DNA of 64,000 bases. Source: a virus. The stretch lies in UHGV virus genome UHGV-0287696. The stretch is one strand, 5' to 3'. The notes beneath the pieces were generated by a model. It saw only the letters and a program-made list of their open reading frames with translations. It was not told where the DNA came from and made no database searches. Shown here piece by piece: positions 27,439-29,304 of the stretch (its first letter is position 1; each line of letters starts with the position of its first letter). The position numbers were made by a program, and so were the translations under genes.

Positions 27439-28029
27439 ATGGCCGAACGTTGGACTAAAGAAGGTATTATTGCTTCGAAAACAGATTTAGAAGGCGGGTA
27501 CGTAAACGACCCTGACGATAAAGGTGGGGAAACCTGTCACGGTGTAACACTAACAACTGCGCGCGAATACGGGTATAAAGGAAGAATGAAGGATCTGACC
27601 CGTGCGCAAGCGTTTGATATTTACGATCGCGGTTGGTGGAAGAAACTTAAACTCGATGAGATTTTAGCTATCTCACCCTTACTCGCAGACCGGATGTTTG
27701 ATTTTGCTATTAACTCTGGCCGCGTTAACTGCGTGAAATCGTTACAACGTATTCTCAACGTTTTAAATAACGAAGGGAAACTTTACGCAGATATTGACAC
27801 CGACGGCGGTATGGGACCTAAAACGCTAGGTGCCCTGAATGCTTATCTGAATTACCGTAAAGACGAAGGATTAGGCATCTTAATCTTTGCCTTAATCTCA
27901 CACCAGGTAACTTACTACACAGAAATCTCCGAAAAGCGTAAGAAGAATGAAAAATTCGCTTACGGCTGGTACGCACGTGTGTTCAGGGAAATGCCGGATT
28001 ATGTGGCGAAGGCGGGGTTAGTAAAATGA
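27439..28029 (+). CDS. endolysin, glycoside hydrolase family 108-like lysozyme with peptidoglycan-binding C-terminus
   Basis: 196 aa; N-terminal EGGYVNDPDDKGGETCHGVT matches the GH108 catalytic signature; C-terminal GGMGPKTLGALNAYL resembles a PG-binding domain. Confidence 0.75.
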   Translation: MAERWTKEGIIASKTDLEGGYVNDPDDKGGETCHGVTLTTAREYGYKGRMKDLTRAQAFDIYDRGWWKKLKLDEILAISPLLADRMFDFAINSGRVNCVKSLQRILNVLNNEGKLYADIDTDGGMGPKTLGALNAYLNYRKDEGLGILIFALISHQVTYYTEISEKRKKNEKFAYGWYARVFREMPDYVAKAGLVK

Positions 28030-28130
28030 ACTGGTTTGCTAAACTCTTAGCGTTATTGTGGAAAGCGTTAACGTCTGGGCGGAAACGTAAAGACGAAAAG
28101 CGTGGATACGAATTTTTCTGGTTTCTATAA
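28026..28130 (+). CDS. small overlapping ORF, possible lysis-associated membrane peptide
   Basis: 34 aa MNWFAKLLALLWKALTSGRKRKDEKRGYEFFWFL; ATG overlaps the endolysin stop (ATGA); amphipathic and basic; absent from the ORF track (below 60 aa). Confidence 0.3.
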   Translation: MNWFAKLLALLWKALTSGRKRKDEKRGYEFFWFL

Positions 28131-28136
28131 GGGAAG

Positions 28137-28811
28137 GTGTGGGTAATGGAGAAGCTTCAATATAAACGTTTAGACAATAAGTGGTTTGTATTAACGGAGG
28201 ATTACCATTATCCGTTTACGTTACGTGAAATTTATCACGACCACGTACACTTAGACCGTGCGGTTTATTTAACGGGTGTATTGCCTGACACACAACTGTG
28301 GTTAACGGCACCGAAAGGGTTCGTTACCGATTTAGCGTCGATTCCTGAACACCTCCAGGGAATCTTCCATCCTGACGGACCGTGGGCACCTGCGGCCTGC
28401 ATTCACGACCTACTTTATCAAAAATGTAGTACGGAACGGAGCTATCCCATGACACCGGGTGGTAACGTTTCGCGTTTTATCGATAAAGAGTTCTCTGATT
28501 TAACGTTCCTGCGTATTATGCAGTCGTTGGAAATCTCGCCTTATATCTGCCAAACATTTTATAAGGCCGTCGTTGAATTCGGCTGGGATTCCTACGTAGA
28601 TCCTAATGCAATGCCATCCTACAACACTAACGCGTTTCGTACGTTAGATTACAATCGAAACTATTTATTCGTTCGCGAGTTTAAGGAACCTGCAATCCCT
28701 GACCACGAACGTATTGATATCACCACAGATCAGCCCGTTAATGTCAAATACCTGAACATCAAACGTGCTTTTCTGTCTGGGAGGGAAGATGTTTCATCCA
28801 AATCCGAGTAA
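28137..28811 (+). CDS. DUF1353-like protein
   Basis: 224 aa; GFVTDLASIP and CIHDLLY motifs typical of the DUF1353 family; start may be the ATG at 28146. Confidence 0.5.
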   Translation: MWVMEKLQYKRLDNKWFVLTEDYHYPFTLREIYHDHVHLDRAVYLTGVLPDTQLWLTAPKGFVTDLASIPEHLQGIFHPDGPWAPAACIHDLLYQKCSTERSYPMTPGGNVSRFIDKEFSDLTFLRIMQSLEISPYICQTFYKAVVEFGWDSYVDPNAMPSYNTNAFRTLDYNRNYLFVREFKEPAIPDHERIDITTDQPVNVKYLNIKRAFLSGREDVSSKSE

Positions 28812-29304
28812 CTTTAAACTCAAAGAGTTAGTACCACAGTCTTATATTGCCAAATACGGCGATTCTGCAATTCGGTTTATGAATCCGCTGTTAATGATTT
28901 CGCTACAACAGATTCGTAACCGTTTCGGTAGAATGGTCATTAACTCAACCGCTGCGCAACAGCGTGGCCTAAGAACCTTAGACTTCTTTATTAATCAAGA
29001 AAAGCCTAAAGGCGGTAACTATAAACAACGTGCTTTACAACTCTACTCTGATTCAGGAAGTCAACACAAATTCGGTAACGCAATTGACGCAACGTTGTTG
29101 GACAGTACCGTAAAGCAGGTTCACGACTACATCGCTGCTAACCCTGATGAGTTTCCGTTCATTCACTTTATTGAATGTGACATCAGTTGGTTACACATCG
29201 ACGTTCGTAACCAACCTAACATTACTTTCTGGTCACCGAATCGCGGTACTGTGAAAGTGGTTAAGCAAAAACCAATCGACTGGAGCGCCTTAGTCGAGAT
29301 TTAA
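28789..29304 (+). CDS. peptidase M15-like peptidoglycan peptidase
   Basis: ORF track frame 28765..29304; ATG at 28789 with GGGAGGG upstream; SQHKFGNAIDA (SxHxxGxAxD) and WLHID fit the zinc D-Ala-D-Ala carboxypeptidase (VanY/M15) fold. Confidence 0.6.
   Translation: MFHPNPSNFKLKELVPQSYIAKYGDSAIRFMNPLLMISLQQIRNRFGRMVINSTAAQQRGLRTLDFFINQEKPKGGNYKQRALQLYSDSGSQHKFGNAIDATLLDSTVKQVHDYIAANPDEFPFIHFIECDISWLHIDVRNQPNITFWSPNRGTVKVVKQKPIDWSALVEI

Follow-up and report, generated by a model that had tools for sequence, protein, structure and literature searches.

Organization of the gene cluster

The window analyzed here, a stretch of 64,000 nucleotides of the virus genome UHGV-0287696, contains at positions 27439–29304 four open reading frames (ORFs) on the same strand: ORF1, for a GH108 muramidase; ORF2, for a peptide of 34 amino acids; ORF3, for a DUF1353 protein; and ORF4, for an M15-like zinc peptidase (Table 1). 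A sequence-only reading of this DNA had described them as a lysis cluster, and the four-gene arrangement was confirmed. Synteny and protein identity place the source phage among the jumbo phages of the SPN3US (Seoulvirus), Erwinia and Cronobacter CR5 group, whose proteins are syntenic with and 44–78% identical to those of the window. At the DNA level the window matches almost nothing in known phages, and its phage is a separate lineage.

The ATG of ORF2 overlaps the stop codon of ORF1 by 4 nucleotides (ATGA), and ORF4, read from its likely true start at 28789, shares its first 23 nucleotides with the end of ORF3. The starts of ORF3 (ATG at 28146, 221 amino acids) and ORF4 (ATG at 28789, 171 amino acids) were preferred to upstream GTG codons because of the lengths of the orthologues. 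Terminator-like sites were more numerous in the region than in shuffled sequences (13 versus 5.7 ± 2.0). None lies inside the cluster and there is one at each end, so that the four ORFs look like one transcription unit. A scan for sigma-70 promoters returned fewer sites than the shuffles, which tells nothing about a phage that has RNA polymerases of its own.

Table 1. The cluster, its boundaries and the convergent gene downstream
Feature	Coordinates	Strand	Remarks
Intrinsic-terminator-like hairpin with T-run, 5′ boundary of the unit	27382..27402	+	9-bp stem, 6 GC pairs, T-rich tail; ends the upstream head-protein genes
ORF1, GH108 N-acetylmuramidase with PG_binding_3, TtsA-type endolysin by family, SPN3US gp156 orthologue	27439..28029	+	Pfam, PHROG 315 and PDB matches
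ORF2, 34-amino-acid cationic amphipathic peptide (type A gap peptide; disruptin-like candidate)	28026..28130	+	Conserved in L008–L013, SPN3US and Asesino (gp172)
ORF3, DUF1353 protein, candidate TtaP-type phospholipase A2, SPN3US gp157 orthologue	28146..28811	+	
ORF4, predicted divergent M15A/LAS-fold zinc peptidase, SPN3US gp158 orthologue	28789..29304	+	PHROG 894 'endolysin', E 1.3e-28
Bidirectional hairpin terminator, 3′ boundary, separating the operon from the convergent lipoprotein gene	29388..29415		11–12-bp stem, T-runs on both strands
Convergent lipoprotein gene, SPN3US gp159 orthologue	29423..29902	-	Signal peptide and LAGC lipobox; PHROG 9559 (unknown function)

Two putative peptidoglycan hydrolases

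The assignment of ORF1 to GH108 was upheld by Pfam, in which Glyco_hydro_108 matched with 84.1 bits (curated cut-off 21.2; E 1e-23) and PG_binding_3, as C-terminal domain, with 60.7 bits (cut-off 24.6). The EGGY catalytic motif is present (LEGGYVNDPDD, residues 17–27), and the protein matches PHROG 315, labeled 'endolysin'. Full-length alignments were obtained with TtsA, the GH108 enzyme of the Salmonella enterica typhoid toxin islet (48% identity over 172 amino acids, E 5e-55), and with PDB entry 6v40 (6v40/6v3z, E 1e-44). Against NCBIfam NF040573, an equivalog of holin-associated N-acetylmuramidases, ORF1 scored 71.5 bits, below the cut-off of 240, and is related to that family rather than a member of it. 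Neither a signal nor a signal-arrest-release sequence was found in ORF1. By family, ORF1 is a TtsA-type muramidase predicted to cut the glycan strand.

The M15 assignment of ORF4 stood on transitive homology, zinc motif and predicted fold, and not on a direct Pfam match: no Pfam family matched the window protein at E ≤ 1, and phmmer and profile searches against PDB sequences gave noise only. Among 32 homologues, 18 match Peptidase_M15_3 (best 6.8e-8) and 13 match M15_4; one (P0002) carries a precomputed PF08291 match, and the homologue in phage Phobos is named 'peptidase M15A'. The zinc ligands H93, D100 and H136, which lie in the SxHxxGxAxD motif already recognized in the sequence-only reading and in a WxH motif, are invariant in 32 sequences, and so are D138 and R43. 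The predicted structure has the Hedgehog/DD-peptidase fold, and no signal sequence was found in ORF4. These data support ORF4 as a putative divergent zinc peptidase of M15A/LAS fold. Compared with the Streptomyces albus zinc DD-peptidase (M15A), VanXY and the L-Ala-D-Glu peptidases of T5, Ply500 and LysB4, ORF4 is too diverged for a direct Pfam match and has an N-terminal helical region of its own.

ORF3 belongs to the family of the phospholipase TtaP

The DUF1353 assignment of ORF3 was clear in Pfam (54.1 bits against a curated cut-off of 22.5; E 1.2e-14). The sequence-only reading had attached no function to it; DUF1353 is the family of TtaP, a biochemically verified phospholipase A2 (PLA2) that loses its activity with the mutation D85A (PMC11525133). 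The identity between ORF3 and TtaP is 37% (BLASTP E 1e-15), and the catalytic residues H70, D71 and D85 of TtaP (a His/Asp dyad and the Asp adjacent to the His) align with H87, D88 and D118 of ORF3, which are invariant in 40 diverse DUF1353 members. PDB sequences, searched with single sequences and profiles of DUF1353, returned noise only, and a fold comparison was needed, as for ORF4; the best fold match of the predicted ORF3 model was a PLA2. TtaP is a minimal domain of 125 amino acids, whereas ORF3 has in addition an N-terminal beta domain and a C-terminal extension of about 70 amino acids, the latter specific to the jumbo-phage lineage. No signal sequence was found in ORF3. By family and catalytic residues, ORF3 is a candidate TtaP-type PLA2. 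PHROG 1158 and RefSeq label DUF1353 proteins 'tail assembly chaperone' or 'tail assembly-like protein', a point considered below.

A small cationic peptide in a slot of variable content

The 34-amino-acid overlapping ORF proved to be a real gene: it is intact in five close relatives, with synonymous to nonsynonymous differences of 5:0, 7:4, 7:2, 7:2 and 8:2, and its ratio of nonsynonymous to synonymous change (pN/pS 0–0.13, from five phylogenetically non-independent comparisons) lies in the same range as in the three enzymes, a sign of purifying selection on the peptide. Diverged versions occur in SPN3US (unannotated) and Asesino (gp172), with the common layout NWFxxL...[RK]AL...RRKR. The net charge is +5 in the window peptide and +6 and +7 in the SPN3US and Asesino versions; the hydrophobic moment is 0.45 in the window peptide and 0.45–0.60 across the versions of this type (type A), which makes them strongly amphipathic. 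No relatives were detectable outside its own cluster in 1.84 billion proteins. A published search for disruptins looked for proteins of fewer than 80 amino acids, with a charge of at least +4, encoded beside an endolysin (10.1101/515445). With 34 amino acids, a charge of +5, a predicted amphipathic helix and an adjacent endolysin gene, ORF2 falls within that description. It is not a transmembrane helix, its best 17-residue Kyte-Doolittle value (0.85) being well below transmembrane level, and it lacks the one or more transmembrane domains that would mark a small cassette protein as a holin. The earlier suggestion that a small ORF might fill a membrane role is thus plausible on size, charge, amphipathicity and position in the slot that spanins occupy elsewhere (see below).

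Throughout the relatives that have both genes, the gap between GH108 and DUF1353 codes for a tiny membrane-type peptide, of which there are three types. Besides type A there are, in other Erwinia relatives, type B, which has a 'DDDPPP' motif followed by a true C-terminal transmembrane helix, and type C, which has a hydrophobic helix with a basic tail, so that the peptides of these relatives do carry a transmembrane helix. The slot is conserved and its occupant varies. In SPN3US, the 290-bp gap between gp156 and gp157 (L002 5034–5324, corresponding to SPN3US 136034–136324) contains three unannotated small ORFs: the type A peptide (33 amino acids), a P-rich ORF of 50 amino acids and a transmembrane ORF of 30 amino acids. 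Taken as a pair, the P-rich and the transmembrane ORF look like the one type B ORF that Erwinia phages have, and a split gene, a frameshift or an error in the sequence could account for their separation.

Conservation of the gene neighborhood

In order to compare the arrangement, 17 jumbo-phage loci were used, among them four of CR5 type that include CR5 twice (L004 and L021). DUF1353 is the constant element (17/17), and every locus also has GH108 upstream of it or M15 downstream of it, if not both. All four genes, in the order GH108, peptide, DUF1353, M15, are present in the window group and SPN3US. Asesino and six further loci of Erwinia type lack M15, and in them GH108 is followed by a small peptide and DUF1353; the four CR5/Phobos/Derbicus-type loci consist of DUF1353 and M15 only. 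Across the whole CR5 genome, neither GH108, peptide nor lipoprotein was found. SPN3US is closest in content, with syntenic GH108 (62% identical), DUF1353 (59%) and M15-like (78%) proteins (gp156–gp158), the convergent gp159 and a homologue of the 34-amino-acid peptide; it differs in the longer GH108–DUF1353 gap with additional small ORFs, including a transmembrane one. The Erwinia relatives differ in lacking the M15 gene and, often, in having another peptide type.

Outside the jumbo phages, Caulobacter phage DMCA has the order M15, small ORF, DUF1353, and in Fusobacterium phage FNU4 DUF1353 lies between an autolysin and a holin. Among 123 same-strand neighbors from 34 non-redundant viral loci, the commonest identifiable ones were Phage_holin_4_1 (six, probably from one related phage group) and wall hydrolases (about nine, of five folds), followed by tail-fiber families. 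Small transmembrane proteins were found beside DUF1353 at 25% versus 17% (p 0.067). Adjacency of GH108 and DUF1353 as a general rule was rejected: of 142 DUF1353 loci from outside the jumbo phages, a single one (Acidovorax, L161) shows it, and one narrow M15 profile detected no M15 gene beside DUF1353 in any of the 142. DUF1353 goes with lysis genes as a class rather than with GH108 in particular. DUF4376 genes accounted for 4 of the 123 neighbors in small phages; one lies directly upstream of DUF1353 in CR5 (L004 2612–3268), and the window has one at 31251–31922 (-), about 2 kb from the cluster.

The Acidovorax case is a prophage of Acidovorax sp. A1169 with the order tail protein, holin (phrog_2359), protein with three transmembrane segments, GH108, DUF1353 and prophage end (L161 2732–4360); no spanin-like ORF was found after its DUF1353 gene. 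Lambdoid and P2-like prophages with a TtsA-like endolysin have one or more holin genes first, then GH108, then one or more spanin genes, with an overlap between the stop of the endolysin gene and the start of the spanin gene. Since spanins follow GH108 in these ordinary prophages, the peptide and DUF1353 occupy, by position, the spanin slot, as DUF1353 does in the Acidovorax prophage. The canonical GH108 cassettes (lambdoid, P2-like, and the lineage of coliphage N4 gp61) thus share with the window the endolysin family and a downstream start that overlaps the endolysin stop, but they have holins upstream and spanins (Rz/Rz1-like, DUF2570) downstream, whereas the window has a terminator upstream and a cationic peptide, a putative phospholipase and a second putative hydrolase downstream.

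Holin and spanin candidates and flanking genes

The absence of an obvious canonical holin or spanin, remarked on previously, was borne out: no membrane ORF of the window matched a holin or spanin family in PHROG or Pfam. Neither a holin nor a spanin appears in the complete RefSeq annotation of SPN3US or of CR5, absence from an annotation being weak evidence. The wall-lysis genes annotated in them are the GH108 'endolysin' of SPN3US and one 'transglycosylase' in each phage. In a spanin, a lipoprotein of the outer membrane is fused to an inner-membrane anchor or has one as its partner; the cassette codes for no such arrangement. The convergent lipoprotein was rejected as an o-spanin or u-spanin: it is encoded on the opposite strand, its mature form of about 140 amino acids is too large, and it has neither a C-terminal transmembrane domain nor an i-spanin partner. 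In 13 of the 17 jumbo loci its gene stays near the cluster; the four CR5-type loci lack it. The longest ORF for it, 29423–29962 (-), includes 20 codons ahead of what is probably the real start (MLKRFLIAMVGVFSLAGC...). The lipoprotein shows 71–95% amino acid identity among the closest relatives, versus 97–98% for the product of the adjoining M15 gene, and three of five close relatives have another sequence in place of the adjacent intergenic region.

Two other groups of membrane genes were observed in the window. Overlapping small genes at 8909–9133 and 9130–9330 (+) code for proteins of 74 and 66 amino acids, each with one N-terminal transmembrane helix and with a similar Cys-containing C-terminal part, as in paralogues; neither belongs to a PHROG or Pfam family, and the pair could be holin/antiholin-like or other membrane proteins. 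Five tandem genes at 59010–61212 (+) code for proteins of 129–161 amino acids with an N-terminal transmembrane or signal-anchor segment each; PHROGs without an assigned function (3429, 9424, 8968 and 5248) match four of them, partly with cross-matches, which suggests a paralogous membrane-protein array.

The cluster is flanked by genes for four DUF7941 proteins, at 26039–27377 and 30041–31182 (+), which correspond to the 'paralog family B' head proteins of SPN3US, a family of 20 members, some of them highly abundant. Upstream of 23012, 25441, 27439 and 30652 there is a repeated layout of GC hairpin, T-rich stretch and leader of 20–30 nucleotides with a strong ribosome-binding site, with TGTAAAA-like words before two of these positions, 23012 and 27439. 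This layout may be promoter/terminator punctuation of the phage and, being common to the cluster and the adjoining structural genes, is weakly suggestive of late expression.

Relation to the typhoid toxin islet and other systems

In the S. enterica islet, ttsA and ttaP are immediate convergent neighbors, 147 bp apart (L170 5544–5690). The islet and the phage cluster have the same two families side by side, neither enzyme carries a signal peptide, and both systems lack spanins and an identified holin. The islet differs in that its two genes are convergent, bacterial and PhoPQ-regulated, in its non-lytic action and in the lack of an M15 partner; in the phage, the two families stand together where the whole envelope has to be destroyed. 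No convincing phage-like peptide ORF was found in the 147-bp gap: an ORF of 35 amino acids (MIYSHRELVK..., with a short hydrophobic stretch) and one of 23 amino acids that overlaps the end of ttsA do not resemble the phage peptide. The TtsA/TtaP pair is part of the Salmonella type 10 secretion system. According to a 2026 paper on type 10 secretion in Salmonella, such systems derive from phage lysis cassettes; in it TtsA needs 'a yet unidentified holin', the outer-membrane release step is described as not yet known, spanins are absent and TtaP is unmentioned. The authors of the TtaP study prefer the idea, unproven, that TtaP perturbs the outer membrane for secretion.

ORF2 resembles the 'disruptin' gp28 of phage phiKT, which is also a small, cationic, amphipathic helical peptide encoded beside an endolysin in a spanin-less phage. 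The likeness is one of properties and position, and no relation by sequence is claimed: gp28 has 56 amino acids against 34 and is without homologues, and in the jumbo lineage the peptide type is inconstant (A, B or C). Mycobacteriophages have LysB, a lipolytic second lysin that acts on the mycolate outer membrane, is encoded beside the endolysin, and completes lysis without spanins. The proposal made below for ORF3 would likewise put an enzyme acting on outer-membrane lipid linkages beside an endolysin where spanins are lacking; LysB differs from it as a cutinase-like serine esterase, as against a PLA2-like His/Asp enzyme, and in substrate and host envelope. In the literature searched, nothing comparable among phospholipases was described for phages of Gram-negative bacteria.

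Proposed mechanism

Taken together, these results lead us to propose, with slightly better than even confidence, that the four genes form a non-canonical late lysis operon in which the membrane steps, at any rate that at the outer membrane, fall to a disruptin-like peptide and a phospholipase. Two soluble wall hydrolases would cut different bonds, the GH108 enzyme the glycan strand and the M15A-fold peptidase the peptide stem or cross-link. After wall cutting, the 34-amino-acid peptide would insert into membranes, and the phospholipase would turn phospholipids into lysophospholipids and free fatty acids, destroying the outer and possibly the inner membrane. Because they have no signal sequences, the three enzymes need a lesion in the inner membrane to reach the periplasm; this could come from a holin encoded elsewhere or from the peptide and the phospholipase themselves. 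We infer these activities, membrane targets and timing, as well as the role in lysis, from the families and arrangement described above.

A wider reading that covers phage and islet is more tentative, and we consider it possible rather than probable. In it, DUF1353 phospholipases, with or without the tiny peptide, would be lipolytic, membrane-breaching lysis factors that replace spanins, and possibly the holin, for GH108 endolysins; the ttsA–ttaP pair of the islet would be a domesticated copy of the phage module, and TtaP the missing membrane-permeabilizing partner for TtsA and the toxin.

Alternative explanations

The sequence-only reading had raised the alternative that one of the hydrolases is virion-associated, and in a broader form of it the DUF1353 phospholipase, perhaps together with the M15 peptidase, would be carried in the virion as an entry enzyme and act on the envelope at infection rather than at release, with gp157 among the head or ejection proteins. 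The setting of the cluster among DUF7941 'paralog family B' head-protein genes speaks for it, and so do the recovery of SPN3US gp157 from wild-type virions (4 peptides, 9 spectra, labeled Head), the 2–3 spectra of gp158 in tailed particles with none in tailless ones, and the presence of the DUF1353 protein Gp082 in the virion proteome of phage Arash. That proteome, the basis of the label 'structural protein' for the Arash protein, is, however, very permissive, with 116 proteins that include metabolic enzymes, and the SPN3US authors doubted gp158 as a true virion protein. Published peptide-spectrum match (PSM) counts from nine SPN3US samples, of which sup0-D and sup0-SB are described as containing cellular debris, bear on the question (Table 2).

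Table 2. PSM counts of the SPN3US orthologues in nine samples
Protein	WT (wild type)	am59-supD	supF tailed	supF heads	sup0-D	sup0-SB	sup0-a	sup0-b	am66-sup0
gp156 (GH108)	0	0	0	2	3	2	0	3	7
gp157 (DUF1353)	9	0	0	0	14	25	0	2	3
gp158 (M15)	0	0	2	4	8	11	0	4	4
gp159 (lipoprotein)	0	0	0	0	8	13	0	0	0

The counts show that gp156–gp159 are all made as proteins. Those of gp157 and gp158 peak in the two debris samples, and gp159 was found only there, so that gp157 is highest where the lipoprotein is found. In particular, gp157 was not detected in am59-supD or, after an additional buoyant-density gradient, in supF tailed phage and supF DNA-full heads, in which comparable head proteins were recovered; its standing as a virion head protein was downgraded accordingly. 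With gp156 absent from wild-type virions and gp158 present in traces only, the virion-associated hydrolase is weakened as well; known virion lysins, moreover, are usually domains of large structural proteins. The nine-sample pattern is better explained by late proteins associated with the envelope than by stable components of the virion, and packaging for entry appears improbable. We judge it about equally improbable that the cluster is an accessory, non-lytic module for envelope remodeling (lysis timing, vesicles, or superinfection exclusion together with the lipoprotein), lysis being left to the transglycosylase and another holin. TtsA and TtaP do act without lysing Salmonella, a separate transglycosylase is present in both SPN3US and CR5, the make-up of the module varies by lineage so that GH108 or M15 is dispensable, and a conserved lipoprotein adjoins it; yet GH108 enzymes of this type are the only endolysin in bona fide lysis cassettes of phages and prophages, non-lytic secretion has no obvious benefit for a virulent phage, and all jumbo relatives examined keep DUF1353 beside at least one wall hydrolase. 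Finally, the chaperone labels of PHROG 1158 and RefSeq, and the tail-fiber and DUF4376 genes often found beside DUF1353 in small phages, would make ORF3 a tail assembly chaperone and the cluster partly morphogenetic. No experimental basis for the label was found in the searched literature mentioning DUF1353, the invariant His-Asp...Asp residues, the PLA2 fold match and the biochemistry of TtaP point to an enzyme, and no tail genes lie beside DUF1353 in the window; tail-fiber neighbors are explained by lysis cassettes commonly following tail-fiber genes. This last explanation is very unlikely.

Implications for phage lysis and toxin secretion

Lysis by phages of Gram-negative bacteria is taught as the work of holin, endolysin and spanin, and to our knowledge the disruptin is the only alternative to spanins that has been described. 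About 15% of these phages have been reported to lack spanins (10.1101/515445), and host lysis by jumbo phages is largely uncharted. The genes of the cluster were already known, and partly annotated, in SPN3US-like phages, and PLA2 activity in the DUF1353 family has been published for TtaP. The connection between phage and TtaP, the conserved peptide slot and DUF1353 as a lysis factor in the spanin slot were not found in the searchable literature.

If the proposed lysis operon is real, a PLA2 in the spanin slot would mean enzymatic membrane destruction in Gram-negative hosts, by a logic like that of LysB, with the Acidovorax prophage cassette as an independent natural example. The widespread label 'tail assembly chaperone' on phage DUF1353 proteins would have to be corrected, and the enzymes and peptides would be candidates for lysin-based antibacterials that need to cross the outer membrane. 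Homology and adjacency shared with TtsA and TtaP also lead to a testable hypothesis for two steps, how TtsA gets into the periplasm and by what route the toxin crosses the outer membrane, and the phage would offer a tractable system for it, with a phenotype expected to be strong rather than masked.

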